A DNA stretch of 64,000 nucleotides, taken from assembly GCA_012523095.1 (NCBI GenBank), contig JAAYJE010000038.1:40244-104243 (forward strand), given 5' to 3'. The stretch is from Actinomycetota bacterium. GTDB lineage: Bacteria; Actinomycetota; Thermoleophilia; RBG-16-64-13. The notes beneath the pieces are model-generated. The model had not been told where the DNA came from, ran no database searches, and saw only the letters and a list, made by a program, of their open reading frames with translations. The position numbers were made by a program, and so were the translations under genes. Below are positions 7,298 through 30,041 of this stretch, piece by piece (positions within the stretch are counted from its first letter, which is position 1; each line of letters begins with the position of its first letter).

Positions 7298-7300
7298 ACT

Positions 7301-8142: not shown

Positions 8143-8180
8143 GAGACATGCCGAGACGGACAGGCAACGCGTACCAATCC

Positions 8181-13849: not shown

Positions 13850-13852
13850 CTC

Positions 13853-16402
13853 TCAGCCCTCCCATTTCCCTATCTCGATGAGGCACGAGTTGGGCGTCAT
13901 CCCCGGCGCATTCTTGGACAGCATCCGAGACGGGGTCAGCATGCTGACACACCCGCCCCTGTCCGGGGAGTCAGGGTCGCCCGGCATCAACGGGTCGTAC
14001 AGGGCCGAAGAAGCGTAGCTGTGCACCGTCCCAGGACGGACCCGACCTGTGACGACGGCGATGCAGAGCACCGACGCTCTGTCGTTGTAGAGGCGGACGA
14101 TATCGCCACTGTTGATGCCCCTCTCAGCCGCGTCCTCCGGATTCAGCCGCGCCGGCCACCAAGGATAGCCGTCCTTCTTGATGCGATGCACCGGGATGTC
14201 GTTAAGCCAGTCGGTGTGCTTGTCGTAGTGGCAGTGGAACGAGAAACGTGGATGCGGAGACAAGAGCTGCAACGGGTATTTGTCATACAGTCCGGGCGTG
14301 CGATACCCCTCCCAGCTACGGAGATATCGGGGCACTACCGGCCGTTCCTCGTCATCGGGGAAGTACTGCTTCAGACTCTCCGAGGCGAACTCGATCTTGC
14401 CGCTGAAGGTTCCCAGCTCGTGGTTCGCCGCGGTCAGCCGCTTGGGATTGCCGACGTCGGGCGTATCGCAGGCCCGGCCCTCGTAGAACCAACGCAGCCC
14501 AGGCGTGGGTTCGTAGTCGTCCTTGATGTTGATGATGTGATAACCCTTACGGTTGAACTCTTCCCAGCTCACCTCTTTGGGCAGGTCGCAGGCGTCGAAG
14601 AAACCTTTGACCCAATCGACCTCGGTCTTGCCGCCATCGGTGTACTCATCGCGGAGACCCATCTTCTCGAAGATGAGAGCGAAGATCTCATAATCCGATT
14701 TGGAATCCCAAAGTGGTTCGATGCACTTCTGCTCACGGACCACCACCCGGTAGTTGCAACCGCTGCTGGCGTGCCAGGTGTAGCCGTTAACGGCGGCCCA
14801 CTCCCCGATGTCGTCACGTTCGAAGTTGGTGCAGGCGGGCAGGATGACGTCGGCCATGCGGGTCTCGCTGTTCCACCAGATGTCTTGGTTCACCACGAAC
14901 TCCAGCTTGGGGCTCTGATACATACGCGCCCACTTCGTGGTGTCGCTCATGGTGCCCATGAAGGAGCCGCCGTATCGGTACCACAGCTTGACCTCAGAGC
15001 ACCCCTCCGCCGGGTACTTGAAATGCATGAATTGCTGCTCGAGGCTCCTGCCGCAGAAGCCCTCGCCGTACCACTCCACCGGAGGGTCGAGGATAGCGTC
15101 GGGCACCGTCAAGCGCCAAAGCCGCTGGGGGTTCGAATTGACCGGGATGTAGTCCGCGACCTTGGGAGACATCGATATGCGACCGTTAGGCTCACCATAG
15201 GCGGGCACCCAGACCGTGGTGTCGTTCGGAGCCCCCATCGTCGTACCCCAGATGCTGCGGCCCGGTGCGCCCAACCCCTGCATCGCCTGCAGCAACACCA
15301 TCATGCGGGCCCACTCAGTGCCGTATGCCTCCCGGCAGGCGCCGCCCTCGCCGCCGCGAGACCCCCCGGAAAGGATGGTGCGCTTGGCCGCCCACTCTCG
15401 GGCCAGGGCGCGGATCACTCGAGCCTCCACGTCGCACTCTTCGGCGGCCCACTCGGGGGTTTTGGGCACTCCGTCGATATCCCCCAGTATGTACTCCTTG
15501 AACTCTTCGAAACCGATGGTACGGTCGGCGACATACTCTTTGTTGTAGGTGTCCTCGGTGATCCACACGAAGGCTATGGCCATAGCCATGGCTGCGTCGG
15601 TGCCCATGCGCGGAGTGATCCACTTGCCGCCCATAACAGCGTTCGTGTAGTTATAGAAGGGGTCGATGAAGACCATCTTGACACCCTTCTCCTTGAGCCA
15701 CTGGCGCCAGAGCGCAGAGTCTTGGCCCGAGTATGTTCCCCGGGTGCTGTCCGGATCGTTGGACCAGTAGACGATCATCTCGGCATTCTGTAACGCATCG
15801 CCCAACATGTCGTACGGTTCGGGCATCCCGAGACGCCAGTAGAACCCGTAGCTGTGCGTGGCTCCCCAGTGCCAGCCCTCCCAGCTGTCGGGGTTGTCGA
15901 GCACCGGGGTGCCTTCCATCATGTTGAGGAACCGCGCGAAGGGCCCCATCTTATAACCCACGATGCCCCAGTTGTGGTGCGACGAGGTCATGCCGCTGAT
16001 GGCTGAGCCGCCGTAAGCATCCTTCACTCTCGTCAGCTCGGAGCTCACCAGAGTAGCAGCCTCATCCCAAGAGATGTGCTCGTAGGGAGACCTGCCACGG
16101 TTCTGCGGATTTCGGCCCCCGGGCCCGGTGGAGCCTGGAGCACCATTCGCGTCGAAATCGACCCGCTTCATCGGGTACTTGATGCGCTCGTCGGAGTAGA
16201 TGCGGCGGCGTTCTGCGTGGGTATAAGGCGACAGCGTCACCTTCTTAGGGGGAGAGTACTCTTTGCCGCCGGCTTCGATGGTCCAAGGCTTGAAGTCCTT
16301 CTCATCGACCACCAGTGGACGAACCCGAACGATCTTCCCGTCTTTGACATAGACAGACACGGGCCCGCTGTTGGTACAGTTGGCGAACACCCTTTCGGCC
16401 AT
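13853..16402 (-). CDS. Molybdopterin-dependent large (alpha) subunit of the pyrogallol hydroxytransferase (transhydroxylase) family, copy 1
   Basis: 849 aa MopB-type protein without an N-terminal CxxCxxxC FeS motif and without a Tat signal. Blocks PDSWEGWHWG, MIVYWSNDP, GVPKTPEWAAEE, ILPACTNFERDDIGEW and SDYEIF are as in the Pelobacter acidigallici large subunit. Confidence 0.8.
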   Translation of the reverse strand: MAERVFANCTNSGPVSVYVKDGKIVRVRPLVVDEKDFKPWTIEAGGKEYSPPKKVTLSPYTHAERRRIYSDERIKYPMKRVDFDANGAPGSTGPGGRNPQNRGRSPYEHISWDEAATLVSSELTRVKDAYGGSAISGMTSSHHNWGIVGYKMGPFARFLNMMEGTPVLDNPDSWEGWHWGATHSYGFYWRLGMPEPYDMLGDALQNAEMIVYWSNDPDSTRGTYSGQDSALWRQWLKEKGVKMVFIDPFYNYTNAVMGGKWITPRMGTDAAMAMAIAFVWITEDTYNKEYVADRTIGFEEFKEYILGDIDGVPKTPEWAAEECDVEARVIRALAREWAAKRTILSGGSRGGEGGACREAYGTEWARMMVLLQAMQGLGAPGRSIWGTTMGAPNDTTVWVPAYGEPNGRISMSPKVADYIPVNSNPQRLWRLTVPDAILDPPVEWYGEGFCGRSLEQQFMHFKYPAEGCSEVKLWYRYGGSFMGTMSDTTKWARMYQSPKLEFVVNQDIWWNSETRMADVILPACTNFERDDIGEWAAVNGYTWHASSGCNYRVVVREQKCIEPLWDSKSDYEIFALIFEKMGLRDEYTDGGKTEVDWVKGFFDACDLPKEVSWEEFNRKGYHIINIKDDYEPTPGLRWFYEGRACDTPDVGNPKRLTAANHELGTFSGKIEFASESLKQYFPDDEERPVVPRYLRSWEGYRTPGLYDKYPLQLLSPHPRFSFHCHYDKHTDWLNDIPVHRIKKDGYPWWPARLNPEDAAERGINSGDIVRLYNDRASVLCIAVVTGRVRPGTVHSYASSALYDPLMPGDPDSPDRGGCVSMLTPSRMLSKNAPGMTPNSCLIEIGKWEG

Positions 16403-16453
16403 CAGTCATCAGCTCCCATGAGATTCCGTGGTGGGCGGCTTCAAGAGGTAAAA

Positions 16454-16492
16454 CGATATCTCGATATTATTGAGTAATACTGCTAGTATCGT
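16454..16492. promoter_or_regulatory. 39-bp conserved operator-like motif, copy A, in the divergent promoter region between the transhydroxylase-1 operon and IclR/transhydroxylase-2
   Basis: cgatatctcgatattattgagtaatactgctagtatcgt matches the reverse complement of 28095-28133 at 30/39 positions, including an identical 18-mer cgatattattgagtaata. Confidence 0.45.
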
Positions 16493-16501
16493 AGAGTAGG
16501 C

Positions 16502-17362
16502 ATGGTCCATTTGCAAGGCATGCGCTCGCCTGGAAGAGCGGCCCCGATCGACGGGAGAGATATGGCCGCGACGACAGCATCGCGAGATACCGATCCTTTC
16601 TCGGTCAGAGCGCTGGCCCGAGGCCTCTCCATTCTATGCCTTTTTGACGTGGACCACAGAGAGTGGACCATCGACGAGATGGTGGAGCGGACCGGGCTGG
16701 TTCGCATGACGGCCTACCGGATGGTGCGGACTCTGGAGTCCATGGCCTTCCTGGTGCGGGATTCCGCGACCAATCGCTACCGGCTCGGGCCGGCCATGTT
16801 GGCGCTCTGCTACGTCGCCGCCGATCAGTCGGAGTTCATCGCGGCGGCCCGACCTTTTCTCGAATCCCTCGTGGAGCAGACGGGAGAATCGGTCACTCTG
16901 GCCGTGGAGGTCGACGGGTTCCCCGTGTGTGTGGACATCATCAACACCACCCGTCCCTTCAAGCGCCAAACGGCCCCCGGCCGCATCCTCGGTGACATCG
17001 CGACGGTCCACGGAAAGATCTTCACCGCCTTCAAGTCGCCGGAGGAAAGAGAAGCGCTTCTCGCTCGGCCCCGCGCCAGGCGGACACCTCAGACCGTGAC
17101 CGACCGGGAGGTCATCCTGGCGGAGCTCGACCGGGTAGTCAAGGACGGCGTAGCCTACGATCTCGAAGGGTACTACCAGGGTCTGTGCGCGGTGGGCGCT
17201 CCGGTACGCGACCAGTTCGGAGCGGTCACGGCCTCAATCTCCGTGGTGGCTCCTGCGGGCCGCTTCGGTCCCGCCGAGAGCGCCGCTTTCGCGGAGGCCG
17301 TCACGGAGGCGGCCGGCGCCTTCTCCGCCTATCTGGGGTGGACCCCCCGAGCATCTACTTAG
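16502..17362 (+). CDS. IclR family transcriptional regulator
   Basis: N-terminal wHTH (..SVRALARGLSILCLFD...WTIDEMVERTGLVRMTAYRMVRTLESMAFL..) and C-terminal IclR effector domain. The start codon is uncertain; later Met at 16520 or 16562 are possible. Confidence 0.75.
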   Translation: MVHLQGMRSPGRAAPIDGRDMAATTASRDTDPFSVRALARGLSILCLFDVDHREWTIDEMVERTGLVRMTAYRMVRTLESMAFLVRDSATNRYRLGPAMLALCYVAADQSEFIAAARPFLESLVEQTGESVTLAVEVDGFPVCVDIINTTRPFKRQTAPGRILGDIATVHGKIFTAFKSPEEREALLARPRARRTPQTVTDREVILAELDRVVKDGVAYDLEGYYQGLCAVGAPVRDQFGAVTASISVVAPAGRFGPAESAAFAEAVTEAAGAFSAYLGWTPRAST

Positions 17363-17488
17363 GTAGTTTGGACCCCCGTTCTGCCGGGCAACTATTGACT
17401 GATCGCTCCCAGCAAGGTACAAAGGATTGGCCAATAATCTCAAACCCGAGGCGTCCATTCACCCCTCTTCGAAAGGACGACGATTGCT

Positions 17489-20140
17489 ATGGCCAAAGGG
17501 GAACGCGCAAAGGTCGACGTGAGTGTCGACAAAACAACGATCAAGAACCTCGCGATGGGGGGCCTTTTGGGAGGAGGCGGCGAGTGCTTCGTGGATGTCA
17601 AAGATGGGAAAGCGATCCGTATCAGACCCTTCAAATACGACTGGAAGTGCGACTACGACTCGCTCAGACCGTGGAAGATCGAGCGTAACGGCGAGACGCT
17701 GCAGCCGCTGCCCAAGGCCTTGCCGGCCCCGTTCTCTCTCGCGTACAAGAAGAGGACCTTTTCCCCCAACCGTATCAAGTTCCCTTTGAAGCGGGTGGAC
17801 TGGGACCCGAATGGAGCACCCGGGTCCACCGGGCCCGGCGGCCGCAACACCCAGAACCGTGGCAAGAGCAAGTTCGTGAGGATCTCGTGGGACGAAGCCA
17901 TTGACCTTGTCGCCTCGGAGGTCAAGCGCGTCCATAAGGAATACGGCCCGCTCGCCATCCTGGCGCAGGGTGACGGCCACGGAGAGTGCAAGACCATCCA
18001 CACACCGCACGGCCATCAGGCCCGCCTGCTCGATATGATGGGGGGCTTCACGCAGCAGGTGCGCAACCCCGACAGCTGGGAGGGCTGGTACTGGGGCGCG
18101 AAGCACGTGTGGGGGCAGGGCTTCCAAGGCATGATGTCACCGGCGGCCAACCTCACCAAGGACATCTCCGAACACTCCACCATGGTCCTCAAATGGGGCT
18201 GCGACGAAGAGACCACGCCCTGGGGTTTCACCGGCCAGTATGCTACCCGCATCTCGCAGTTCTGGACGCGGGCCGGCATCAAGCAGGTGTATATCTGCCC
18301 CGACCTCAACTACGCCGCCGCCGTCCACGCCGACAAATGGATCCCGGTGCTCCCTAACACAGACGCCGCGCTCCAGCTGGCCATCATCTACGTGTGGCTG
18401 ACCGAGGACACCTGGGACAGAGAGTACGTCGAGACGCACGCGGTAGGCATGGACAAGGTGGCCGCCTACGTGCTGGGCGAGGACCAGGAGGGTATCCCCA
18501 AGACGCCTGAATGGGCCTCGAAGAGGTGCGGCGTGCCGGAGTGGACCATCAAAGCCCTGGCCCGCCAGTTCGCCAAGAACACCACATCCATCATCCACTA
18601 TTTCGGCGGCTCGGCTTTCCGGGGTCCATACTCACATGAGCCCGGCCGTCTGGAGTGCATCCTTCTCGGCATGCAGGGGCTCGGCAGACCAGGCGTTCAC
18701 CAGTGCCAGATGACGTACTTCGGTATGCCCCGCGCGGAGGGGTTGGGCAGCATCCGTTTCTTCAACCCTGAGTTGCCCGAGCGGCTCACGAAGCCCTGCT
18801 GGACCACGGTGCATTCGTGGGGTCCACAGCTCATCCCCAAGACACTCATCCAGGACGCCATCCTCAAACCACCCCTGGTATTCCACGGCGCCGGCGGCCA
18901 GGAGAGCCCGACCGAGGAGCAGTTCGACCGCTACACTTATCCCATCGCGAAGGAAAAGGGCGGCGTCCCCATCCACATGATCTGGACCGACACGCCCTGC
19001 CGCATCACCTGCTGGAACCACGGCAACTGGACCATCGAAGCTTTCAAGGATCCCAGCATAGAGTGTGTGGTCGCACAGCACCCGTGGATGGAGAACGAAT
19101 GCCTCTACGCCGACATCGTGTTACCGGCCAACACCACCCTCGAGGTGGAGGACATCGTCACCACCACCCGGCAGGGACCTCACTTCGCAAGCGTCTCCAT
19201 CCAGGAGCAGTCCATTCTGCCGATCGGCGAGTCGAAGAGCGACTACGAGATCGTGGCCGCCATCGCTGAAGAGCTGGGCTACGGCGAAGAGTTCACTGGG
19301 GACATGAGCACGTACGATCTCCAGAAGCTCGTGTTCGACAGCATGCACCTGGACAAGCTCACCACGTGGGAGGACTTCTACGAGAAGAAGACCTACGTGT
19401 ACAAGACGGCTCCCGACTGGGAGGACGACCCGCCCGGCTTGCGCAAGTTCTACGAGGATCCCAAGAACAACCCGCTCCCGACTCCGAGCGGCCTTCTGGA
19501 GTTCTATTCCGCTCGACTGGCCGAGCACTTCCCTGACGATAAGGAGCGGCCGCCGTTACCGAAGTGGATCGAGAAGGGCGTCACTCACGACGAAGCCCTG
19601 TCGAGCGAACGGGCGGCCATGTTCCCGCTGCTTCTGATCTCCAACCATCCGCGCTGGCGCACACACGCCCAGGGTGACGACAACAGCTGGGCCCGGGAGA
19701 CCCCTACCGGCAAGGTGCTGGGCTTCGACGGCTACAAGTACGAGCCTATCTGGATCAACCCTGTTGATGCTGATGAGCGTGGCATCAACGACGGCGACGT
19801 GGTCAAGATCTTCAACGAGCGTGGCGTCGTACTCGTCGGCGCCCGCGTCTGGGAGCGGATCAAACCCGGCGTGGTTTATGTAGACCACGGCGCCCGGCAT
19901 GACCCGCTGGTGCCGGGCAAGGTATGCCGCGGAGGCGCCATCAACACTATCGCCCCCAATGGGATCACCTCCAAGAACGCCGTCGGCCAGGCCACAAGTG
20001 GTTACCTGGTCGACGTGCAGAAGGTGAAGAACGAGGAATGGGAGGAGTGGCGTAGGGACCATCCCGAAGCCTTCGCACGGGTCTACGACCCGGGTGCCGG
20101 TTTACGCTTCGACGCATGGATCGAAGGAGGCGACAAATGA
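17489..20140 (+). CDS. Molybdopterin-dependent large (alpha) subunit of the transhydroxylase family, copy 2
   Basis: 883 aa with no Cys4 N-motif and no Tat signal. It shares NGAPGSTGPGGRN.QNRG, PDSWEGWYWG, GIPKTPEWA, VLPANTTLEVEDI and SDYEIVAAIAEELG blocks with copy 1. Confidence 0.8.
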   Translation: MAKGERAKVDVSVDKTTIKNLAMGGLLGGGGECFVDVKDGKAIRIRPFKYDWKCDYDSLRPWKIERNGETLQPLPKALPAPFSLAYKKRTFSPNRIKFPLKRVDWDPNGAPGSTGPGGRNTQNRGKSKFVRISWDEAIDLVASEVKRVHKEYGPLAILAQGDGHGECKTIHTPHGHQARLLDMMGGFTQQVRNPDSWEGWYWGAKHVWGQGFQGMMSPAANLTKDISEHSTMVLKWGCDEETTPWGFTGQYATRISQFWTRAGIKQVYICPDLNYAAAVHADKWIPVLPNTDAALQLAIIYVWLTEDTWDREYVETHAVGMDKVAAYVLGEDQEGIPKTPEWASKRCGVPEWTIKALARQFAKNTTSIIHYFGGSAFRGPYSHEPGRLECILLGMQGLGRPGVHQCQMTYFGMPRAEGLGSIRFFNPELPERLTKPCWTTVHSWGPQLIPKTLIQDAILKPPLVFHGAGGQESPTEEQFDRYTYPIAKEKGGVPIHMIWTDTPCRITCWNHGNWTIEAFKDPSIECVVAQHPWMENECLYADIVLPANTTLEVEDIVTTTRQGPHFASVSIQEQSILPIGESKSDYEIVAAIAEELGYGEEFTGDMSTYDLQKLVFDSMHLDKLTTWEDFYEKKTYVYKTAPDWEDDPPGLRKFYEDPKNNPLPTPSGLLEFYSARLAEHFPDDKERPPLPKWIEKGVTHDEALSSERAAMFPLLLISNHPRWRTHAQGDDNSWARETPTGKVLGFDGYKYEPIWINPVDADERGINDGDVVKIFNERGVVLVGARVWERIKPGVVYVDHGARHDPLVPGKVCRGGAINTIAPNGITSKNAVGQATSGYLVDVQKVKNEEWEEWRRDHPEAFARVYDPGAGLRFDAWIEGGDK

Positions 20141-20955
20141 AGGTCTTCGTCATCGATGTCGGCCTTTGTGTAGGCTGCTACGCCTGCCAGTTCGTCTGCA
20201 AGGACGAGCACGTGGGCAACGACTGGTCGCCGATCGCCAAGCCCCAGCCCGACACCGGCCAGTTCTGGATGCGGCTGGACGAACACATCCGCGGCACGGT
20301 CCCCAAGGTGGAGATGCATTACGTGCCGAACCCCTGCATGCACTGTGACGAGGCCCCCTGCATCCCGCCCTGCCCCATCGAGGGAGCCATCTATAAGCGC
20401 GACGACGGGCTGGTGATCATCGACTCGATGAAGTGTACGGGGTGTAGGTTATGTGTCGACGCCTGCCCCTACGACGCCATCTACTTCAACGACGACTTGA
20501 ATCTGGCCCAGAAGTGTACAGGCTGCGCCCATCTCCTCGACGGCGGTGAATGGATGGTCCCGCGCTGCGTCGACGCCTGTCCCACTGAGGCCATCAAGTT
20601 CGGTGAAGAGAGCGAGTTCGCTGCCGAGATAGCGAAGGCCGAAGTGCTGAAGCCCGAGCTGGGCCACAAACCGCGCGTCTATTACCTCAACATCCCGAAG
20701 AAGTTCATCGCGGGCACCGTATACGATCCGGTTGCTAAGGAGATCATCGAGGGCGCCACCTGCACGCTCACGAACGGCAACGACAAGGCCCTCACCGCCA
20801 CGACCGACGGCTTCGGCGACTTCTGGTTCCGGGGGCTCCCCGACGACGCCTCTTACAAGCTGAGCGTCTCGGCCCCGGGCTTCAGAACCAAGACGATGGA
20901 GGACATCCGCACCGAGAAAGACGTCAATCTAGGCGACATAGCGCTTGCCAAGTAA
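20137..20955 (+). CDS. Transhydroxylase-family small (beta) FeS subunit, copy 2
   Basis: ATG at 20137 overlaps the alpha stop (ATGA) with GGAGG 6 nt upstream; the track ORF starts earlier at 20116. Motifs MKVFVIDVGLCVGCYACQFVC, PCMHCDEAPC, CTGCRLCVDACPY, CTGCAH...CVDACPTEA, plus C-terminal GFGDFWFRGL...VNLGDIAL domain. Confidence 0.8.
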   Translation: MKVFVIDVGLCVGCYACQFVCKDEHVGNDWSPIAKPQPDTGQFWMRLDEHIRGTVPKVEMHYVPNPCMHCDEAPCIPPCPIEGAIYKRDDGLVIIDSMKCTGCRLCVDACPYDAIYFNDDLNLAQKCTGCAHLLDGGEWMVPRCVDACPTEAIKFGEESEFAAEIAKAEVLKPELGHKPRVYYLNIPKKFIAGTVYDPVAKEIIEGATCTLTNGNDKALTATTDGFGDFWFRGLPDDASYKLSVSAPGFRTKTMEDIRTEKDVNLGDIALAK

Positions 20956-20992
20956 TGACCTGATCAGTCTCTCGCGCGGACGTCGAAACAAA

Positions 20993-21028
20993 GGCCCCCT
21001 GCCGCAGGTCACGGCAGGGGGCCTTTTT
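20993..21028. terminator. Rho-independent terminator hairpin (12-bp GC stem, 7-nt loop, T5 tail), probably bidirectional between convergent genes
   Basis: ggccccctgccg caggtca cggcagggggcc ttttt immediately after the 20955 stop. The minus-strand gene ends at 21086. Confidence 0.6.
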
Positions 21029-21085
21029 CTTCCCACGGTGGTCTCGCACGGGTTCCCCGTGAAAGGTCCGCTACAGCGAGATAGG

Positions 21086-22216
21086 TTACCTCGATCTTGC
21101 CGGGTCGGCGTCTATCAGGCCCTCGAGTCCGTGAGAGAGCTCCTGCAGCTTTCTGGCCTGCTCCTCCACCTCCCTGGTGGCTGCCACCGACTGCTTCTCC
21201 GCCTCGTTGATGCTGGACATGGCCTTGCCGATCTGCTCCACACCCGCCAGCTGTTGACCGCTCGCGGTGGAGATGTCCGTCGTCGCTTCGGCGGTCCTGG
21301 TCGCCGCCTCCATCCTCTCACTGATGTTCTCCAGAGCCTTGTTGGCTTCGAGCCTGCCCATCTCCACGGTCTCCCGACCCTGTTCCGCAGCCTGGACAAC
21401 CACGTCGCTGGCCTTCTGGATCTCGCCGAGGACCGCCCGCACCTGCGCGACCGCCTGTTTGGATTGCTCGGCCAGGCTCTTGACCTCTTGGGCGACCACG
21501 GTGAAGCCTTTGCCGGCCTCTCCGGCCTTGGCCGCTTCGATCGATGCGTTCACGGAGAGCAGATTGGATTGCTCGGCGATATCGTTGACCGTGGCGATTA
21601 CCTCTCCCACCGACTCGTTCTGCTCCTTCAGCCGATCTATGGCCTCCGCCACCACGCCCATATCGCGGTGTATCTGTTCGAAATGATCGAAGTTCCTTCT
21701 TGCCGACTCAGCACCGAATCTCGACTTCTCCACCACACTCTGTGAAACCTCCGAGGCCTCAGAAGCCTTCTCTCGGGTCAGCGCCGCCGTCTGCCTGACT
21801 TCTTCCACCGTGACCGTGGTCTCGTTCGTGGCTGTCGCCGTCTGCGCAGCCGCGGCCGCGACCTGCGACGAAACGGCCAGCAGTCCGGCCGCGGCCTCAG
21901 CGATACTGGTGACGGCGGCCCGAAGTCGGCGGCGGATCCCACGGCTGAGGGCCACGGTCCCCACGCCGCTCAGCGCCACCGCCACAGCCGCAAGAACAAC
22001 TATGGCGATCAAGAACACGGTGGCCGTGCCGTCCAGCGTGTCCAACATGCCTTGGAGTGTCTGATCCCCCGAGACTCCTGCCTGTCCGGCCGACTTGACG
22101 AAGTCCCCATGCCAAGACCTGACCCAGACCATGGCGCCGATGCCGACACCTGCCACCGCCAGCGTCAATACCAAGGGGCCGACCATCGCAGTCGTGATAC
22201 GCCGTCCGATCGTCAT
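21086..22216 (-). CDS. methyl-accepting chemotaxis protein (two TM helices, short periplasmic loop, MCP signalling domain)
   Basis: Conserved MCP signalling-domain core (..[32 protein letters not shown]..) and two hydrophobic segments near the N-terminus. ATG at 22216 with GGAGGA RBS; the track start at 22297 is rejected. Confidence 0.8.
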
Positions 22217-22417
22217 CTCACGTCCTCCCTCTCTTGCCCTCGACCCGCACCTTTGCTGGTCGTCAAGAGGCATGCCTCCTGCGTCTATTTCGTCCACGCA
22301 GGCCGATTTCCCCCAAGGACTTGCCTGCGCCCCAGGGTCCGGCCATCGAAACAGGTGCTGAAGACGACGAGGCGTCCGGAAGGAGTGATGCCTCTCCCCG
22401 TCCGTGTCGACGGACGT

Positions 22418-23233
22418 CTACCCCCAGCTTGAGCCGTATTGCCCGATCGCCGCCGCAAACGCGTCGATGAAGTGGACGCCTCCGTCGACGAGTATGGTGG
22501 ATCCGGTCATGAAGTTGGAGTCCTCACCGGCCAGGAATACGAACAACCCGGCGATATCAGTCGGAGTCGCGATGCGGTGCAGAGGCACGTGGCCGGCCAT
22601 GGTCGCGAAGACACCGTCCATGTCGGTGTTGAGGACCTCGGCCATCGGTTCGAAGTTGCTTTCAAGCATAGCCGTGCGCACCGGCCCCGGGCAGACCACG
22701 TTGCATCGCACGTTGTTCTTGCCGTAGTCGAGAGCCACCTGCTTGGTCAGATGGATCAGGCCGGCCTTGGTGGTGCAGTAGGCGGGTCCTCCGGGTACGG
22801 CCACCACTCCGGCCAGCGACGCCACGTTGATGATCGAGCCGCCTCCAGCCTTGGCCATCTCAGGGATGGCGGCCTTCATCATCAGGAAGGGGCCCGTCAG
22901 GTTCACCTCAAGCATCTGGCGCCAAGCCGCCGGGTCCATGTCGACAACCCCGGCGTTCATCTCGATAGCAGCGTTGTTGACCAAGATGTCGAGCCGCCCC
23001 GTGAAGCCGAGCGCCGCCTCGACCATCTTGCCGGCGTTGCCGTCCTCCGTCACGTCTCCGCAGAAGACCGTGACGCTGTCCGTGGGCAGTAACGCGGCCA
23101 CCTCGTCCAGCTTCTCTCTACGCCGACCCGTGATGACGATCTTGGCGCCTTCCTCCACGAAACGCTTCGCGACCCCCGCGCCGATGCCGGTGCCGCCGCC
23201 GGTGATGAGTGCGACCTTGTTTTCTAGTTGCAT
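22418..23233 (-). CDS. SDR family oxidoreductase
   Basis: NKVALITGGGTGIGAGVA, NNAA, YCTTKAG. ATG at 23233 with AAGGGGA RBS, 10 nt after the upstream MBL gene stop. Confidence 0.75.
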   Translation of the reverse strand: MQLENKVALITGGGTGIGAGVAKRFVEEGAKIVITGRRREKLDEVAALLPTDSVTVFCGDVTEDGNAGKMVEAALGFTGRLDILVNNAAIEMNAGVVDMDPAAWRQMLEVNLTGPFLMMKAAIPEMAKAGGGSIINVASLAGVVAVPGGPAYCTTKAGLIHLTKQVALDYGKNNVRCNVVCPGPVRTAMLESNFEPMAEVLNTDMDGVFATMAGHVPLHRIATPTDIAGLFVFLAGEDSNFMTGSTILVDGGVHFIDAFAAAIGQYGSSWG

Positions 23234-23243
23234 TGCCGTCCCC

Positions 23244-24170
23244 TTACTCTCTGGGCGGGTCACCGTCGAACCCGCCGTTTGGATTCAAGAATATCTTCCC
23301 AGGTTCGCCGGGAAGAGGGGTGAGCCAATCGGGGCTGCTGTGGGGAAAGAGCAACCTCGCCTGCCAGTGGATGGCAAAATCCTCCGCTTTCACGTCCCCA
23401 TAGTACCTCGCCATGCCCTCGACCAGGTCCGCCCCGGTCTTGGCGATGTTATACATCTCCTCGTAGACATCCAGGTAGCGCACCGACCAGTCGACGCAGT
23501 CGGTATAGGTGCGAGAGGTGTCCTCCTGCACATCCTCCAAGATGCGTAACTTGGCTTCGTCGCAGTGACCTGGGATGACGATGCGGGGGTCGAATTCCAG
23601 GAGCTTCTTGATAGAGGCCCTCCACTTGACCCGTCGCTCCACGTTGCTTTCGATGGGCCATAGGTGACAGTCGTGGAAGGCCACATCAGTCGCACACAGG
23701 ACCCGGATCGACGGCGCCCAGACCACGGAGTTGTTGACGCTGTCTCCCTCCCAGCCGTCCGACACCAGCAGTTCTTCGCCCTCCAGTTCGAGACGAGGCT
23801 CGTGCATGGGCATAGGGATGATGGTCTTCGGTGGAATATCCGGCCCAAAACGATCTATTGCCCACATATCCACCTTGTCGCTCGAGGTGAACACCACATC
23901 TCTCACCACGCTCGGCAGCGCCACGATCTTGGCGTGCGGGAACGCATGCGCAAGGACGCTCAGCCCGAAATGGTGGTCGGGATGGAAGTGAGAGACATAT
24001 ATATGGGTGAGGTTCTTCCTCATCGGGATGATCTCCGCGATCATCCTGTGGGTGTCGCTCAGCAATTGGGACGCGTCGACAAGGACGGCGTCGCGCTCCC
24101 CATAGAACAACGTGGAGTTGCTGTTGAAACCCAGGTAGCTGTGAAGAAACACGCGGTATTTCAGCGTCAC
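23244..24170 (-). CDS. MBL-fold metallo-hydrolase
   Basis: HxHxDH motif YVSHFHPDHHFG with downstream His/Asp ligands. GTG start with GGAAGGGG RBS. Confidence 0.7.
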   Translation of the reverse strand: MTLKYRVFLHSYLGFNSNSTLFYGERDAVLVDASQLLSDTHRMIAEIIPMRKNLTHIYVSHFHPDHHFGLSVLAHAFPHAKIVALPSVVRDVVFTSSDKVDMWAIDRFGPDIPPKTIIPMPMHEPRLELEGEELLVSDGWEGDSVNNSVVWAPSIRVLCATDVAFHDCHLWPIESNVERRVKWRASIKKLLEFDPRIVIPGHCDEAKLRILEDVQEDTSRTYTDCVDWSVRYLDVYEEMYNIAKTGADLVEGMARYYGDVKAEDFAIHWQARLLFPHSSPDWLTPLPGEPGKIFLNPNGGFDGDPPRE

Positions 24171-24321
24171 ATCAACCCCTTCCTATCGACAGGCTGCAAA
24201 TCTTCTCCAGACCACGAGTACTCCTTGAAGATGTCCAGCATGATACCGGTTGCCTTGAGCGCATGCTCCCTTGGAATCGCAGCCAAGAGCCTTCCCGACG
24301 CAGGTGAAGGACGAGTCGCTG

Positions 24322-25155
24322 CTACGTCGGGTCCAAGTCCCGTCGCGAGTAACCCAGAAAAGCCGAGAGGTCGGTGGCCGTGGATTTGATCGCCTCGGCG
24401 TACTCGCGCTTCTCGTCGGGCCCAAACCGTCCTGCGGGTACGATGAGGGAGATGGCGGCGATCACTTTGCCGAGTTGGTCGCGCACCGGGGCTGCGACGG
24501 CACAGGTGCCTACATTGCGCTCCTCGATGTCAAACGCCACTTCCTCGCGCGCCACCCGTCCCAACTCCTTGGCCAGGACCTTCGGGTCGGTGATGGTGTG
24601 GGGAGTGAGTCGAGGATGATCGCCGGCCAAGATCTCAGCCTTTTCGGCTTCGGTCTTGAAGGCCGCGAAGATCTTACCGTTTGCGCTGGCCGTATCGCCG
24701 ATGATGCGGCCCACGGCGACCTCCCGTCTGAGCGGCCGCGGCGTATCCACCATATCGACGCTCACCGCCACCCCGTCCAACTCGATGGCCAGCGTAGCCG
24801 CTTCGCCCGTTTGCTCGGTCAGGTCCACTAGGTAAGGCCGCACGATCGCCGCGAGCTCCGAGTAGCCGCCCGACAAGTACATGGTGGCCAGCAACGCAGG
24901 ACCCAGGTGATACCGGTTGGTCACGGGATCCCGTACCAAATAGCGCGAAGACTCCATGGTCCGGATCATCCGGTAGGCCGTCATCCTTGGAAGGCCGGCG
25001 CCCTCAGCGATCTCGTCCAACGTCCATTCTCGGTTCTCAGCGTCGAACAGGCCAAGGATAGTAAGACCCTTCGCCAGGGCCCTCACCAAGAAGGCCCCGT
25101 CCGCACCTTCCGCGGACCCCGCCCGCTGTTCAGGTTTTGCAGTCGATTTGGCCAC
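24322..25155 (-). CDS. IclR family transcriptional regulator (second copy)
   Basis: ..FLVRALAKGLTILGLFDAENREWTLDEIAEGAGLPRMTAYRMIRTMESSRYL.. and IclR C-domain. Paralog of 16502-17362. GTG start. Confidence 0.75.
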   Translation of the reverse strand: MAKSTAKPEQRAGSAEGADGAFLVRALAKGLTILGLFDAENREWTLDEIAEGAGLPRMTAYRMIRTMESSRYLVRDPVTNRYHLGPALLATMYLSGGYSELAAIVRPYLVDLTEQTGEAATLAIELDGVAVSVDMVDTPRPLRREVAVGRIIGDTASANGKIFAAFKTEAEKAEILAGDHPRLTPHTITDPKVLAKELGRVAREEVAFDIEERNVGTCAVAAPVRDQLGKVIAAISLIVPAGRFGPDEKREYAEAIKSTATDLSAFLGYSRRDLDPT

Positions 25156-25201
25156 TCTGGCTCACACCCCTTCAGGCTTCACCACTCACACCGAAGCTCT
25201 C

Positions 25202-25990
25202 TCACACAAAGGCCATAGTCCCGCCGTCAGGATACAAGATGGTCCCGGTCACGAAGTCCGACGCGGCCGAGGCCAAGAAGACGGTCGGGCCGATGAGGTC
25301 GGGCACTGTGCCCATGCGGCCCATGGGCACATTCACAAGCATCTTCTCATAGCGGTCGGCTTCTCTGCGAACACGCTCCTCGGTCATGGGTGTGACGGTG
25401 ATTATCGGGGCGATGGCGTTCACCATGACCTTCTTCGAAGCCAATTCAACCGCCAACTGCTTCGTGAGCATGTCAACCGCGCCCTTGCTGGCGCAGTAAG
25501 CGAGATTGCCGCCCAGTGCGGCGCGCGCCCCACGTATCGAAGACAGATTGATGATCTTACCACCCCCGTGCTCAACCATGTGCTTCGCGAAGTGCTTGCA
25601 GCAGAGCATCACACCGCGGACGTTCACGCTGAAAAGATTGTCCCAATCTTCGAGAGGGAACTCCGTGGCCGGCGCCTTCACATTGAAACCCTGCGCGTTG
25701 ACGCCCACATGAATGCGGCCCATGTCTTCGACGGCGGCCGCGATTATCTCTTCGACGTTCTTCTCCTGGTCTTGGCCCGTCACCACCGGGTAGGTGAACA
25801 CCCTCTGCCCCGTGGTCGCGTGGATCTCTTCCACCGCGCTGTCGATGGCGTCCAGGTTGATGTCGGCGATACCCACCCGAGCGCCGAACACGACTAAACC
25901 CTGCGCCAACCCGCGCCCGATCCCGCCGGCGCCGCCCACCACCACGACATTCTTGCCTTTCAGGGAGAACAGGTCAGGCGATATTTCCAT
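25202..25990 (-). CDS. SDR family oxidoreductase; candidate phloroglucinol reductase-type enzyme
   Basis: GKNVVVVGGAGGIGRG, NAQG, YCASKGAV. First gene upstream of the IclR regulator and last of the HBD-like / BKACE / SDR operon. Confidence 0.7.
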   Translation of the reverse strand: MEISPDLFSLKGKNVVVVGGAGGIGRGLAQGLVVFGARVGIADINLDAIDSAVEEIHATTGQRVFTYPVVTGQDQEKNVEEIIAAAVEDMGRIHVGVNAQGFNVKAPATEFPLEDWDNLFSVNVRGVMLCCKHFAKHMVEHGGGKIINLSSIRGARAALGGNLAYCASKGAVDMLTKQLAVELASKKVMVNAIAPIITVTPMTEERVRREADRYEKMLVNVPMGRMGTVPDLIGPTVFLASAASDFVTGTILYPDGGTMAFV

Positions 25991-26067
25991 GGCCCTGCCA
26001 CCATCCTTTTTCCGTCAGATCTCGTTGCGAGGTTCCTGATCTTGTGAACTGTTGCATGCCGCTCACG

Positions 26068-26922
26068 CTACCGCTTCACAATGCCCAGCATCTGCCGGAC
26101 CTCGTCAGGGGTGGTGGGCTCTATGTTGAGCTCTCGAGCGATGCGGACCGACCGCTCCACCAACTGAGCGTTACTCTTCGCCAGCACGCCCCGCGAGTAG
26201 TAGATGTTGTCCTCGAGCCCCACTCGGATGGCGCCGCCCCTGATCATCGCCATGGTGGTGATAGGGAGTTGCGCGGCCGACGTCGCACAGCAGTTGAAGT
26301 AGCAGCCTTCGGGCAGGAATTCGATCATCGAATTGAGACTCTCGGGCGTCGCCTCCACCGCACCTTGGTACATCATGCCGAGTACGATGTTGACGTAGTA
26401 CGGCGGTTTGATGAGTTCCTTCTTGATGAGGTTGCTCACGTCCCGATACATGCTCTGCGAGTAGCACTCCATCTCGGGCTTGATGTCGAGTTCCCGCATC
26501 TTGGTCGCCCAAGCCTCGATGTCCTTGGTGAGGTTCGAGAATGGAGTGCCGGCGAATTCGCCCGTCTGCCGCATGAGCGTCCCCATGTTGAGCGAGGCCG
26601 ATTCAGGTTTGGCGTCAAGGCAGCGCACCCGCTCCTCGATGGTGAGGTTGGCTCCCCCGCCGGTAGAGAACTGGATGATGATGTCGCCGCATCTGCCCCG
26701 GACCGCCGCCAGTATCTCTTCGAACTTCTCTTTGGTGCCGGTAGGCTTGCCCTTCTCATCGCGGGCGTGGATGTGCACTATGGAGGCCCCGGCGTTGTAG
26801 CATTCAAGCGCAGCCTGGGCAATCTCCGCCGGCTGTTCGGGGACGTTAGGGTTCATATCTTTGGTGACCATCGCCCCGTTCAGCGAAGCGGTGACGATGA
26901 CCTTGCCGGCGGGCAGTTTCAT
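26068..26922 (-). CDS. BKACE family (beta-keto acid cleavage enzyme, DUF849 TIM barrel) protein; candidate triacetate acetoacetate-lyase type
   Basis: KVIVTASLNGAMVTKDMNPNVPEQPAEIAQAALECYNAGASIVHIHARD and later GGGANLTIEER, RVGLEDNIYY blocks are typical of 3-keto-5-aminohexanoate-cleavage-enzyme-like proteins. AGGAG RBS. Confidence 0.75.
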   Translation of the reverse strand: MKLPAGKVIVTASLNGAMVTKDMNPNVPEQPAEIAQAALECYNAGASIVHIHARDEKGKPTGTKEKFEEILAAVRGRCGDIIIQFSTGGGANLTIEERVRCLDAKPESASLNMGTLMRQTGEFAGTPFSNLTKDIEAWATKMRELDIKPEMECYSQSMYRDVSNLIKKELIKPPYYVNIVLGMMYQGAVEATPESLNSMIEFLPEGCYFNCCATSAAQLPITTMAMIRGGAIRVGLEDNIYYSRGVLAKSNAQLVERSVRIARELNIEPTTPDEVRQMLGIVKR

Positions 26923-26930
26923 GGTTGCTC

Positions 26931-27890
26931 CTATATCTTCTCGTAGATGAGGTCTTTGACGTCCTCGAAGACCTTGATGAGTGCGGCGTCGCGTTCTCGT
27001 AGCACCTGCTCCAGGGGACGATCGGTGTAGTCGAAGAAACCCTTGCCCGTCTTCACGCCCAGGTCGCCCGCCTCCATGAGTTCTTTCAGACTCTTGGGCT
27101 GATTGTCGATGGGCGCCTCTACGAAGTCAGGGTTCTGTAGGTTCCCATAGCTGAGGTCGATGCCCGTGAAGTCGTATCGCTGGACGAATCCAAGCACCAT
27201 AGCCCGAGGAATGATGCTGGCCTTGACGGCGAGATCGAGTTGCTCGGCGGTCATGTACCCGTTGTCGAGGAGGAAGAAGATCTCTCGTCCTATGATGCGC
27301 AGAAAGCGGTTGATGCAGAATCCGGGAACGAACTTCTCGAGCACCGTGGGGACCCTCTCCACCTTCTTCAGGAATCCCACCACGAAATCGACAGTGGTCT
27401 GCGCCGTCTCCGGCCCCTTGACCACTTCGACGAGCGGCACTATGTGCGGAGGGGCGAACCAGTGGGCTATCAAGGTCCGGGGCAGACGCTTGACCGGCAT
27501 GATCTCGTAGATGTTGAGGTAGGAGGTATTGCTGGTGATTATGGTCCGCTCGGGACAGACGGCGTCGAGAGCCTCGTAGAGCTCCTTCTTCGCGTCCATA
27601 TTCTCGGCGATGGTCTCTATGACGAAATCGGCGTTCTCGCCCGCCTCTTCCACCGATTGGGTCGTCCTGACGCGGGCCAACACCCTCGGCACCGCGCTCT
27701 CAGCAAGGAGCTCGTTCTCGACGAAGGTCGCGAGATTTGCCTGGGCCACCCTCATCGCCTTGTCGAGAGTCTCAGCCTTGCGCGAATACATCGTCACGTC
27801 GTATCCAGCGGTGGCGAACACCTGAGCAAGGCCGGGACCCATAGTGCCGGCTCCAAAGATGGCAACTTCCTTCACGTCAGCCAGTTCCAC
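26931..27890 (-). CDS. 3-hydroxyacyl-CoA dehydrogenase family protein (HBD-like); candidate 3-hydroxy-5-oxohexanoate dehydrogenase type
   Basis: VKEVAIFGAGTMGPGLAQVFATAGYDV Rossmann start and HCDH C-domain. About 50 % identical by eye to 575-1516. GTG start with GGAGG RBS. Its stop overlaps the BKACE RBS. Confidence 0.75.
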   Translation of the reverse strand: MELADVKEVAIFGAGTMGPGLAQVFATAGYDVTMYSRKAETLDKAMRVAQANLATFVENELLAESAVPRVLARVRTTQSVEEAGENADFVIETIAENMDAKKELYEALDAVCPERTIITSNTSYLNIYEIMPVKRLPRTLIAHWFAPPHIVPLVEVVKGPETAQTTVDFVVGFLKKVERVPTVLEKFVPGFCINRFLRIIGREIFFLLDNGYMTAEQLDLAVKASIIPRAMVLGFVQRYDFTGIDLSYGNLQNPDFVEAPIDNQPKSLKELMEAGDLGVKTGKGFFDYTDRPLEQVLRERDAALIKVFEDVKDLIYEKI

Positions 27891-28094
27891 GCGAGTCCTC
27901 CCTGCCCTCGTCCTTCTCCAAGCTAAGTATGATCGGTCCTGGTATCAGTATACCGCGATACATAGATGAAATATCGAGTTTGGGAGATATGAGCGGCATC
28001 TCAGCCGTCTCTGGAGATCCCGCCGGCCCGGGGCATGCGGGCGTGGGTCCGTTGAAGACGCCGCCCATCTTGAAAATCGACCAGCCCTAGTCTA

Positions 28095-28133
28095 CGATAT
28101 CGCTGATATTACTCAATAATATCGCGATATCGT
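28095..28133. promoter_or_regulatory. 39-bp conserved operator-like motif, copy B, in the divergent promoter region between the phloroglucinol-type operon and the third molybdoenzyme operon
   Basis: acgatatcgctgatattactcaataatatcgcgatatcg is the reverse complement partner of 16454-16492. It contains the inverted repeat CGATATCGC...GCGATATCG. Confidence 0.45.
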
Positions 28134-28269: not shown

Positions 28270-29037
28270 ATGAGATGGGGGATGGTCATCAACCTCGCGA
28301 AGTGCACCCGGTGCCACGCATGCGTCGCCGCCTGCAGAATAGAGCATTTCCTGCCGCTCAGGATCACCTGGCCCAGACTGATCGCACTGGAGGTGGACGA
28401 CGGCGTCACGGTGGACGTCTCGACCTACCCGGTGCGCTGCAACCAGTGCCAAGAGGCGCCCTGCGTGGAGGTCTGCCCGACTGAGGCTTCATATAAGAGA
28501 GAGGACGGGATCGTCGCCATCGACTCCGACAAGTGCTTCGGATGCCGGTACTGCGTCATCGCGTGCCCTTATCAGAACCGCACGTATCTTTCCAGGAGAA
28601 GGAACGTCAACTACTTCCCCGAGCACGCCAAGACGAGCTTCGAGAAGAAGGGCAAGAAGCTCTATCCACACGTGGTGGGAACCACCGAGAAGTGCAACTT
28701 CTGTATGGAGCGTATCGACGCAGGCATGGCGAAGGGTCTGAGGCCGGGCATCGACCGCGAAGCAACCCCAGCCTGCGTGAACATCTGCCAGGCCAGGGCT
28801 CTGACTTTCGGCGATTTGGACGACCCTAACAGCAACGTTTCCGAACTGATCCGCGAGAAGAACGGGTTTGTGCTTCACGCTGAGTACGGCACGGAGCCTT
28901 CCGTCTATTACATCGATTACAAGATCGGTAGAGCTCCCTCGAACAAGGCTCCCATCGAGGCTCAGACGGGCAGCCACATACAGCACCTGAGCACTGTCTA
29001 CGGCCCGTCCAAAGAAAAACTCGCCAAGAAGTACTAG
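28270..29037 (+). CDS. 4Fe-4S ferredoxin-type electron-transfer (beta) subunit of a DMSO-reductase-family oxidoreductase (PsrB/TtrB/DmsB-like); no Tat signal
   Basis: Four Cys clusters: CTRCHACVAAC, CNQCQEAPCVEVCP, CFGCRYCVIACP, CNFC...C. ATG at 28270 with AAGGGAG RBS; the track start at 28243 is rejected. Confidence 0.8.
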   Translation: MRWGMVINLAKCTRCHACVAACRIEHFLPLRITWPRLIALEVDDGVTVDVSTYPVRCNQCQEAPCVEVCPTEASYKREDGIVAIDSDKCFGCRYCVIACPYQNRTYLSRRRNVNYFPEHAKTSFEKKGKKLYPHVVGTTEKCNFCMERIDAGMAKGLRPGIDREATPACVNICQARALTFGDLDDPNSNVSELIREKNGFVLHAEYGTEPSVYYIDYKIGRAPSNKAPIEAQTGSHIQHLSTVYGPSKEKLAKKY

Positions 29038-29055
29038 ACAGGGAGCGAAGAGAGC

Positions 29056-30012
29056 ATGAACGCAAGAACCTCACGTCAATGGATGGTCACCCACGAGTGG
29101 ATGGTCAAACCCATGGGCCAGGTCGAGTGGATCCAAGGGAAGGGTCTCCTGGTGTGGCTGGCGGAGGTCTTCTCCGCCCTAGGAACCGGTCTATACCTGG
29201 TGGCGCTCTTCTTTACCCAGTCGCATCCGCTCACCGCCTTCTGGGCCGGGCTCTTCGGCTGGATAGGGATCGCCATCTTCAAATTACCCTTACACTTCCT
29301 CTACCTCGGGAAGCCCTGGCGCTTCTGGAGAGCTTTTCCGCCGGTAAGTGGCGCATGGAGGACCTCGTGGTTCGCACGGGGCATCGTCTTCACAATGATC
29401 TTTTTGGCCTGCGGCGCCGTGCAATTGATAATGATCGGGCTGATGGGCTACGGCAAAGGTAACGTCAGCATAGAGGTGATCAACTGGATCTTCATGGTCT
29501 TGGCCGGCCTCACCGGCGTGGTCACCGCCATCTACTGCGGTTTCGCGATGAGTTACTGCAAGAGCGTGCCATTCTGGAACACCGGCCTGCTGCCGTTCGT
29601 GTTCCTTATCATGGGCGTCGCCGACGGTCTGGCACTGATCATGGGTGTCGCCCTCGGCACCGGCGAACAGCTCATCGCCACTGCGGAAGCGGCCACACGC
29701 ATCTTGCTCATCGTCAACGCGCTGCTGATCATCATGTACCTGGTGAATGCGAACTACCAGTCGAGCACGGCTGAGCTGTCGGCGCGAGAACTCGTGCGTG
29801 GACACATGGCCTGGGTCTTCTGGCTGGGGATCGTGGTGTTCGGCATCGTCATCCCCTTCGTGATCGCCGTGATCGGAGCCGCTACTCATGTGCCGACCGG
29901 GTTGCTGATCTTTGCCGTTGTCAGTCACACCATCGGAGCGTTCTCGCTGAAGTACGGCGTGCTCAAGGTAGGCATCTACAGGCCACTTCTTCCCAAGGCG
30001 CAGGCCTACTAG
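29056..30012 (+). CDS. NrfD/PsrC-type polytopic membrane anchor subunit
   Basis: 318 aa with eight or more hydrophobic helices. The position between the FeS and catalytic subunits matches Ttr/Srd-type B-C-A operons. Confidence 0.7.
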   Translation: MNARTSRQWMVTHEWMVKPMGQVEWIQGKGLLVWLAEVFSALGTGLYLVALFFTQSHPLTAFWAGLFGWIGIAIFKLPLHFLYLGKPWRFWRAFPPVSGAWRTSWFARGIVFTMIFLACGAVQLIMIGLMGYGKGNVSIEVINWIFMVLAGLTGVVTAIYCGFAMSYCKSVPFWNTGLLPFVFLIMGVADGLALIMGVALGTGEQLIATAEAATRILLIVNALLIIMYLVNANYQSSTAELSARELVRGHMAWVFWLGIVVFGIVIPFVIAVIGAATHVPTGLLIFAVVSHTIGAFSLKYGVLKVGIYRPLLPKAQAY

Positions 30013-30041
30013 GGCGCCCGGGTTAGGTTGAGGAGACACTG

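Follow-up and report, generated by a model that had tools for sequence, protein, structure and literature searches.

The operator of TtgV, an IclR-family repressor of Pseudomonas putida, is said to be about 40 bp long and to overlap the divergent promoters at which it acts. With its ttgV/ttgGHI promoter region and a solved structure (PDB 2XRO), TtgV is the closest known system to the one described here, and its tetrameric binding and DNA-contact residues are given in PMC8222616. Factors of the IclR family usually regulate their own genes together with one or two operons next to them, in many cases operons of aromatic catabolism, and they bind as dimers or tetramers, commonly at tandem sites 18-22 nt apart (PMC8222616). 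This report concerns a conserved intergenic element present in two copies in a 64,000-nt stretch of the metagenome-assembled genome of an uncultured member of the Actinomycetota (Thermoleophilia/Gaiellales type; assembly GCA_012523095.1, contig JAAYJE010000038.1, positions 40,244 to 104,243; the whole stretch is called the window), where it separates divergent operons encoding molybdenum (Mo) enzymes, a phloroglucinol-type module and two IclR paralogs, IclR1 and IclR2.

Bacterial bidirectional promoters have divergent starts 7-25 bp apart and overlapping -10 elements (Warman et al. 2021, summarised in PMC10268837). In our literature searches no paper was found on the regulation of anaerobic polyphenol (trihydroxybenzene/phloroglucinol) breakdown; a regulator has been noted, and left unnamed, in the Clostridium phloroglucinol cluster (PMC10470551). 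The comparative evidence presented below makes it very likely that the element is a promoter/operator module, conserved and particular to this regulon.

Results

Two copies of a shared element in divergent intergenic regions

A reading of the window made from its letters alone (the sequence-only reading) had proposed a 39-bp operator-like motif shared, in opposite orientation, by two intergenic regions. The uninterrupted 18-mer that it reported, CGATATTATTGAGTAATA, was indeed exact at both sites, 16462-16479(+) and 28107-28124(-). These were the only two exact matches in 64 kb, for a chance expectation of 0.01, and no other match with up to 3 mismatches was present in the 64-kb window. The 39-bp match was also real, although the copy B coordinates had been set one base too high; in the correct register, 31/39 rather than 30/39 positions agree between 16454-16492 and 28094-28132 read in reverse complement. 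A 39-bp operator is nevertheless too short a unit. Ungapped comparison of 16453-16523(+) with 28133-28063(-) gave 54/71 identities, placing the similar stretch at ~65-70 bp, whereas the 70-bp flanks of the two copies were identical at 21/70 and 24/70 positions, which is chance level. The similarity thus covers about 65 bp and has the appearance of a promoter-plus-operator module. Its AT-rich character was borne out, with a guanine-plus-cytosine (GC) content of 41-42% against 62.3% across the window, the latter having been put at 65% before.

Copy A (16453..16517, + strand) lies between TH1a, the transhydroxylase gene starting at 16402 on the minus strand, and iclR1, starting at 16562. Copy B (28069..28133, - strand) lies between FeS, starting at 28270 on the plus strand, and the HBD operon. 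Element positions are counted from the A of ACGATATC, found at 16453(+) for copy A and at 28133(-) for copy B. The copies are inverted on the chromosome, as had been noted, yet relative to the genes they are oriented alike in every locus recovered: the CGATATC end faces the Mo-enzyme operon (TH1 or FeS-NrfD-Mo3), and the TAGAGT/ATTTGCAAG end faces the iclR-containing operon (iclR1-TH2 or HBD-BKACE-SDR-iclR2). Pfam assignments agreed with the earlier gene calls around both copies, and the element physically links the three Mo-enzyme operons and the phloroglucinol-type operon, as originally claimed.

Occurrence in genomes and metagenomes

The possibility, raised in the sequence-only reading, that the motif belongs to a dispersed repeat or a miniature inverted-repeat transposable element (MITE) was examined in two scans. 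A 27-nt core pattern that fits both copies and a distant ortholog, GTAATAYNNNNNRTATCGTAGASTAGG, was run against 185,579 species, one genome each. It returned 12 sites in 9 species-level metagenome-assembled genomes (MAGs), all from Actinomycetota (Thermoleophilia/Gaiellales-like) and with 1-2 sites per genome, for a chance expectation, by our own estimate, of ~0.5 hits. Searches with the window proteins (tblastn) assigned all 12 sites to two settings: type A, flanked by TH1a and iclR1-TH2, and type B, flanked by FeS-NrfD-Mo3 and HBD-BKACE-SDR-iclR2. JGI metagenomes were scanned with an independent pattern for the right half of the element, ATCGTAGASTAGG-N5-10-ATTTKCAAG, and 17 of the 19 stretches recovered were type A or type B loci. 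The other two matches, at 1117-1143(-) of locus L022 and 871-897(+) of locus L031, are one sequence, which matches ATCGTAGAGTAGG-N5-ATTTGCAAG and is accompanied by no homolog of the island proteins. They are probably due to chance, because the left half of the element is absent, the spacing is wrong and ~1-3 chance matches were estimated. Four orthologous loci were reached through IclR1 homologs (71-92% protein identity), and the element was present in 4/4. Apart from the one chance-like sequence, occurrences are therefore confined to two syntenic positions, and a dispersed repeat or MITE was ruled out by the scans. Within the window, mismatch-tolerant searches with each block and with patterns of the O1, O2 and O3 types described below found no further promoter-proximal sites except O3.

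Conservation of the element

Thirty distinct elements were aligned, 23 of them A-type orthologous and 7 B-type sequences. The 65-bp block from ACGATATC to ATTTGCAAG showed 80-100% conservation per column, compared with 30-60% in the flanking intergenic DNA. By this measure the element is under purifying selection relative to its flanks, in agreement with the proposal of a shared cis-regulatory element in two divergent promoter regions. Conservation of ATTTGCAAG and of the left half is not a search artefact, because the former lies outside the genome-scan pattern and the latter outside the metagenome-scan pattern. Types A and B differ constantly in TAGAGT versus TAGACT, in AAAACGAT versus GTTACGAT and in the arms of O2. 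Since these differences are the same in every genome, the duplication must be older than these lineages, with both copies retained afterwards.

Two palindromes at a spacing of two helical turns

An unbiased scan of all 5-Nx-5 dyads over all sequences yielded two top dyads, O1 and O2. O1, ATATC-N2-GATAT at element positions 4-15, was the best 5-N2-5 dyad across elements, with 4.24/5 symmetric positions over a background of 1.28; O2, ATAyy-N3-rrTAT at element positions 25-37, was the best 5-N3-5 dyad, with 4.53/5 over a background of 1.40. Copy A carries O1 as ATATC-TC-GATAT (16456..16467) and O2 as ATACT-GCT-AGTAT (16477..16489), and copy B carries them as ATATC-GC-GATAT (28119..28130) and ATATC-AGC-GATAT (28097..28109). 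Their centres are 21.5 bp apart, or two helical turns. The O2 sequence ATAYYNNNRRTAT occurred 2 times in the window (0.08 expected), and across 295 kb of the window and related loci 26/27 matches to the O2 pattern and 22/22 matches to the O1 pattern fell within elements. In copy A, O2 falls in the -35/-10 spacer of the candidate rightward promoter and covers the -10/+1 region of the leftward candidate.

Symmetric versions of O2 were found as ATACT/AGTAT in 14 sequences and as ATATT/AATAT and ATATC/GATAT in 3 each, together with single-step intermediates. As read from these variants, the O2 arms change symmetrically between lineages, keeping the dyad. The operator proposed earlier, formed by terminal CGATATC half-sites, has thus been replaced by O1 and O2 as the dyads supported by covariation. 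CGATATC(G) does stand at both ends of copy B, where CGATATCG occurs twice, and is only partly present in copy A, whose right end is AGTATCGT. The right-hand CGATATCG was rejected as an operator half, A-type copies having TAGTATCG or TAATATCG in its place; its ATCG half alone is conserved, and this half coincides with the TACGAT hexamer described below. The 40-bp palindrome of copy B was likewise rejected as a functional unit, not being kept in A-type copies and being kept only partly in other B-type copies.

A sub-type of A elements, A2 (L004/L005, L010, L011, L017, L024, L034 and L035), has ATATT/AATAT or GTATT/AATAT as O2. In three of its members, L004, L034 and L035, the place of O1 is taken by ATGGA-N4-TCCAT.

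Predicted promoters on both strands

In copy A, two -10-like hexamers overlap within ATCGTAGAGT (16488..16497, element positions 36-45): the top strand reads TAGAGT in the direction of iclR1, and the bottom strand TACGAT in the direction of TH1. ATCGTAGAGT is invariant in all A-type elements. A variable -35-like TTGAGT occupies element positions 18-23 on the top strand. The ATTTGCAAG box (16509..16517, - strand; element positions 57-65) includes on the bottom strand TTGCAA, exactly 17 bp from TACGAT, a candidate -35 of the TH1 operon. Although the box was outside the genome-scan pattern, it was found at a fixed distance in all elements, and this invariance fits a -35 for the Mo-enzyme operons. 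The corresponding promoter-like sequence of copy B, TTGAAA-17-TACGAT (28070..28098, +), points towards FeS-NrfD-Mo3, matches the consensus at 9/12 positions and was called by the sigma-70 scan; it is overlapped by TAGACT (28089-28094, minus strand), which points towards the HBD operon. TTGCAA-17-TACGAT of copy A matches at 8/12 positions, just under the scan threshold. Upstream regions of tRNA genes were tried as a guide to the promoter consensus of the host and were uninformative.

Because the two -10 hexamers overlap by 2 bp, divergent starts ~23 bp apart are predicted. Read from the sequence, top-strand TAGAGT, bottom-strand TACGAT and TTGCAA at 17 bp from the latter would fit a bidirectional promoter with these predicted starts. 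The rightward promoter would be needed in three B-type loci, since an ABC-transporter operon begins there ~230 bp downstream of the element.

An additional palindrome, O3, upstream of HBD

An invariant 21-mer, TATCGCGGTATACTGATACCA, designated O3, is found at 27940..27960 (- strand), ~50 bp ahead of the HBD start codon; within it are a perfect palindrome, GGTAT-N4-ATACC, and a -10-like hexamer, TATACT. O3 was present in every locus that covers the HBD upstream region (among them L012 at ~3593-3614, L014 at ~6084-6105 and L025 at ~6018-6039), even where the ABC-transporter operon separates HBD from element B. Its arms are related to those of O2 in the opposite arrangement, and the pattern RRTAT-N4-ATAYY has 3 occurrences in the window, namely O1-A, O1-B and O3. 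These features suggest a third operator of the same regulon, and O3 is probably the proximal promoter/operator of the HBD-BKACE-SDR-iclR2 operon, related to O1 and O2.

IclR1 and IclR2 as candidate binders

The sequence-only reading had named the two IclR paralogs as candidate regulators, and this proposal gained support: they are the sole regulators always syntenic with the element, and each is encoded in an operon downstream of a copy. Wherever sequence was available, iclR1 is the gene immediately downstream of an A-type copy, and in the loci recovered iclR2 is the last gene of the operon that follows a B-type copy. No other syntenic regulator was found in the orthologous loci; the window's TetR (7301-8287) and GntR (39262-40026) genes stand at a distance of 8-11 kb and are missing there. 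As in known IclR systems, the candidate regulator gene is adjacent to the element or within the operon downstream of it at both A-type and B-type loci, and the O1-O2 spacing of 21.5 bp agrees with tandem palindromes having 18-22 nt between centres.

IclR1 and IclR2 are 55% identical overall, with 66% identity in the helix-turn-helix (HTH)/wing region, 11/14 in the recognition helix and 51% in the ligand domain. When the proteins were mapped onto the TtgV-DNA structure by means of Table 5 of PMC8222616, the TtgV contacts R47, S48, T49, Q51 and R52 corresponded to R, M, T, Y and R (pattern R-M-T-x-Y-R) in IclR1, in IclR2 and in all orthologs recovered. The shared set of predicted contact residues points to a common half-site for the two proteins, and the half-site type of the element is rATAyy. 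On these grounds the IclR paralogs are somewhat more apt than not to be the proteins that bind the element.

All IclR1 proteins of the A2 sub-lineage carry RMTVYRMARTLE in place of RMTAYRMVRTLE. Co-evolution of recognition helix and operator (TAY..V versus TVY..A, tracking A1/A2) was considered and counts as weak evidence at most, as the swap maps to TtgV positions 50 and 54, which make no contact, and conserves volume.

Genes flanking the element

Leftward of copy A runs the TH1 operon (11663..16402, -), which encodes transhydroxylase alpha and beta and a thiolase by Pfam and is conserved in synteny. TH1a is a close homolog of the large subunit of Pelobacter acidigallici pyrogallol hydroxytransferase (E = 4e-260), and TH2a is a more distant paralog (E = 2e-119). 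Rightward of copy A, iclR1 (16562..17362, +; Pfam HTH_IclR and IclR_C) is the first gene, with its ATG start at 16562 set by a Shine-Dalgarno sequence and by orthologs; TH2 alpha and beta follow (17489..20955, +; Pfam). TH2 alpha/beta are probably co-transcribed with iclR1. The gap between iclR1 and TH2 is unconserved and is short in many loci, and a separate TH2 promoter was rejected, the candidate TTGACT-17-TACAAA (17394-17422, +) being restricted to the close relatives L001, L009 and L020, plus L006 and L019. In that sub-lineage the candidate may act as an internal promoter for TH2.

Copy B is flanked on the minus strand by HBD-like (3HCDH; 26931..27890), BKACE (26068..26922), SDR (25202..25990) and, as the last gene of the operon, iclR2 (24322..25155; Pfam). 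The first three form the phloroglucinol-type module (25202..27890, -; Pfam and pathway comparison with PMC10470551), in which the SDR is PGR-like, the BKACE TAL-like and the 3HCDH TfD-like. No 'cyclase'-family dihydrophloroglucinol cyclohydrolase of the Clostridium type was present among the island genes scanned with Pfam. An SDR and MBL-fold hydrolase pair (22418..24170, -) is kept nearby in L001, L002 and L018 and might supply the ring-opening step. In L025 (976-5608), and also in L015 and L023, element B and HBD are separated by an inserted branched-chain-type ABC transporter of five genes, which encode two permeases, two ATPases and a substrate-binding protein. The window has no such transporter at copy B, and the gap is only 190 bp.

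On the plus strand, copy B precedes the FeS-NrfD-Mo3 operon (28270..32282), composed of FeS (28270..29037), NrfD (29056..30012) and Mo3 (30042..32282). Among solved structures, acetylene hydratase matches Mo3 best (E = 7e-84), ahead of FdhF-type enzymes and thiosulfate reductase. Mo3 begins directly with the Fe4S4 domain and so lacks a Tat leader, though it is paired with an NrfD-type membrane subunit. FeS is preceded by an upstream open reading frame (uORF) of 16 codons (28223-28273, +; MAASKASWHSEGRTAS). The uORF is equipped with a strong Shine-Dalgarno sequence, and its TGA stop shares bases with the FeS start codon in the sequence ATGA. If an ATG start is assumed, its length and position are the same in 6/7 B-type loci; L014 has in addition a longer in-frame ATG upstream, and in L021 the uORF fits only with a GTG start. 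The peptide sequence is barely conserved across loci. The uORF may be a leader peptide or a translational-coupling device.

An MCP gene is conserved inside the island (21086..22297, -, in the window; 6165-7295 in L001 and 18859-19989 in L004) and may mediate chemotaxis towards aromatic substrates. A second beta-oxidation-/phloroglucinol-like gene set at 575-8287(-), consisting of 3HCDH, SDR, M24/creatinase-like, thiolase and a 3HCDH-enoyl-CoA hydratase fusion, adjoins a long TetR-family gene; no copy of the element occurs in that set.

Discussion

The explanation that we consider probable is a compact promoter acting in both directions, with a tetramer-type operator at which IclR1 and/or IclR2 would repress both operons until released by an effector. 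Each copy would constitute a bidirectional promoter of ~65 bp that contains its own operator. The TAGAGT hexamer (TAGACT in copy B), together with its weak and variable -35, would direct transcription of iclR1-TH2ab at copy A and of HBD-BKACE-SDR-iclR2 at copy B, and on the opposite strand TTGCAA-17-TACGAT would serve TH1ab-thiolase at copy A and its counterpart FeS-NrfD-Mo3 at copy B. A dimer-of-dimers of IclR1 and/or IclR2 is predicted to occupy O1 and O2, covering the -35/-10 spacer of one promoter and the -10/+1 region of the other. Such binding would shut both divergent operons along with the regulator's own gene, and a trihydroxybenzene or pathway intermediate would release the bound regulator. 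Repression has only a slight edge over activation in our estimate.

Several observations count against this model. Activation is known for some IclR proteins whose binding sites span -35/-10. Conservation of the rightward -35 is poor, the lowest in the element, and TTGAGT-16-TAGAGT matches the sigma-70 consensus at 8/12 positions. The covariation of the O2 arms amounts to about two independent events among related genomes. O1 is replaced in the A2 sub-lineage (L004, L010, L034 and L035), with the predicted contact residues of IclR1 unchanged, and the A51V/V55A swap that tracks A2 is probably a change in core packing rather than in specificity. By inspection, O1 and O2 match none of the published IclR consensus sequences (GKTYCRYW3-4RYGRAMC, TGRAACAN1-2TGTTYCA and GTNCG-N5-6-CGNAC); as the family has no universal consensus, this mismatch weakens the IclR assignment and does not exclude it. 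Finally, TIGR02431 (PcaR/PcaU/PobR), the best NCBIfam hit of IclR1 and the second best of IclR2 (after BhcR), scores 127.0 bits with IclR1 and 123.4 bits with IclR2, below the cut-off of 284.75, which places both proteins outside the PcaR/PcaU/PobR family.

The same difficulties lend some credit to an operator for another transcription factor encoded elsewhere in the genome, which would leave the promoter part of the model as it is: the palindromes fit no published IclR motif class, and O1 changes in the A2 lineage while the IclR1 contact residues do not. Yet the iclR genes alone accompany the element in every case, the window's TetR and GntR genes being distant and missing from orthologous loci; 1-2 sites per genome are typical of a local regulator, and the IclR family is stated to have no single consensus. 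We regard a different factor as unlikely. The element could also be promoter sequence only, recognized by RNA polymerase on both strands, possibly with a specialised sigma factor, and containing no dedicated repressor or activator site. The coincidence of the invariant blocks with the TAGAGT, TACGAT and TTGCAA hexamers agrees with such an arrangement. The conservation, in contrast, runs on through the spacer and the upstream DNA, the rightward -35 is its weakest part, and the two palindromes keep their symmetry through changes in both arms, for which polymerase contacts offer no explanation. This makes a promoter-only element quite improbable.

Two other accounts have very little probability. 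In single-stranded form copy B folds strongly (-23.1 and -21.6 kcal/mol; z = -6 to -7), as would be expected if the operons shared an RNA element in their transcripts, for instance a leader hairpin or riboswitch-like structure. Copy A, which is commoner and equally conserved, has no significant fold (z = -1.3 and -1.5), the iclR1 leader including ATTTGCAAG reaches -0.9 kcal/mol with 0 compensatory pairs and no conserved structure, and an Rfam search of the element gave no match. The inverted placement of the copies on the chromosome and the near-perfect 40-bp palindrome of copy B could point to a dispersed repeat or MITE, or to a neutral remnant of recent duplication or gene conversion between the two intergenic regions. 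The low copy number and two constant syntenic sites, maintained across the 9 MAGs and the metagenomes, are at odds with such an origin, as are the A/B differences shared by every genome and the chance-level identity of the flanks.

A more far-reaching version of the model, which we hold to be doubtful, is a portable promoter-operator cassette that was anciently duplicated and wires two unrelated operon pairs into a single regulon, with the paralogs, alike in their DNA-reading residues and diverged in their sensor domains, competing for or co-occupying the sites so as to integrate two aromatic signals; the rATAyy boxes would then represent a new IclR motif class. If so, pyrogallol-type substrates and phloroglucinol are examples of signals that could be integrated at each bidirectional promoter.

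The element defines a testable regulon for widespread uncultured Actinomycetota of soil, sediment and bioreactors. A single control sequence links two transhydroxylase paralogs, an uncharacterised FeS/NrfD/Mo enzyme and a ring-cleavage module, and argues that Mo3 and TH2 belong functionally to an anaerobic phloroglucinol pathway. It can also serve as a marker for further members of the regulon and as part of a candidate sensor-operator pair for polyphenol biosensors.

Comparison with known systems

Among described bidirectional promoters (PMC10268837), opposite-strand -10-like hexamers overlap as they do in ATCGTAGAGT, and here both directions would lead to mRNAs. The predicted start spacing of ~23 bp is inside the 7-25 bp range; in the commonest class the starts are 18 bp apart, with -7T and -11A reciprocally paired, whereas the offset here, taken from predicted starts, is larger.

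Of the regulators compared, PcaR/PcaU/PobR of the beta-ketoadipate pathway are nearest in the flavour of their sites. These IclR regulators of aromatic catabolism are autoregulated from a divergent intergenic region, and their sites are multi-box, comprising a palindrome and an extra half-site. Their core TCGAT-W-ATCGA resembles the CGATATCG units of copy B, except that CGAT and ATCG abut here without the central W. Their motif is GTNCG-N5-CGNAC, whereas the conserved, covarying dyads of the present element are ATATC-N2-GATAT and ATAyy-N3-rrTAT. The ATGGA-N4-TCCAT of A2 loci L004, L034 and L035 recalls the E. coli IclR box.

TtgV, which was detectable as a PDB homolog of IclR1 (E = 5e-14), remains the nearest parallel. 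Like the regulator in the proposed model, it is an IclR-family repressor whose tetramer occupies a single long operator as a pair of dimers; it acts on its own gene and on a neighbouring operon, and small aromatic effectors release it. The two systems differ in half-site sequence, the target of TtgV is an efflux pump rather than catabolic Mo-enzyme operons, and the present system has two paralogous copies of the element and two paralogous regulators, whose binding is predicted. Taken together, these comparisons describe a fairly ordinary gene switch, of the standard local-regulator design, with a non-canonical half-site.

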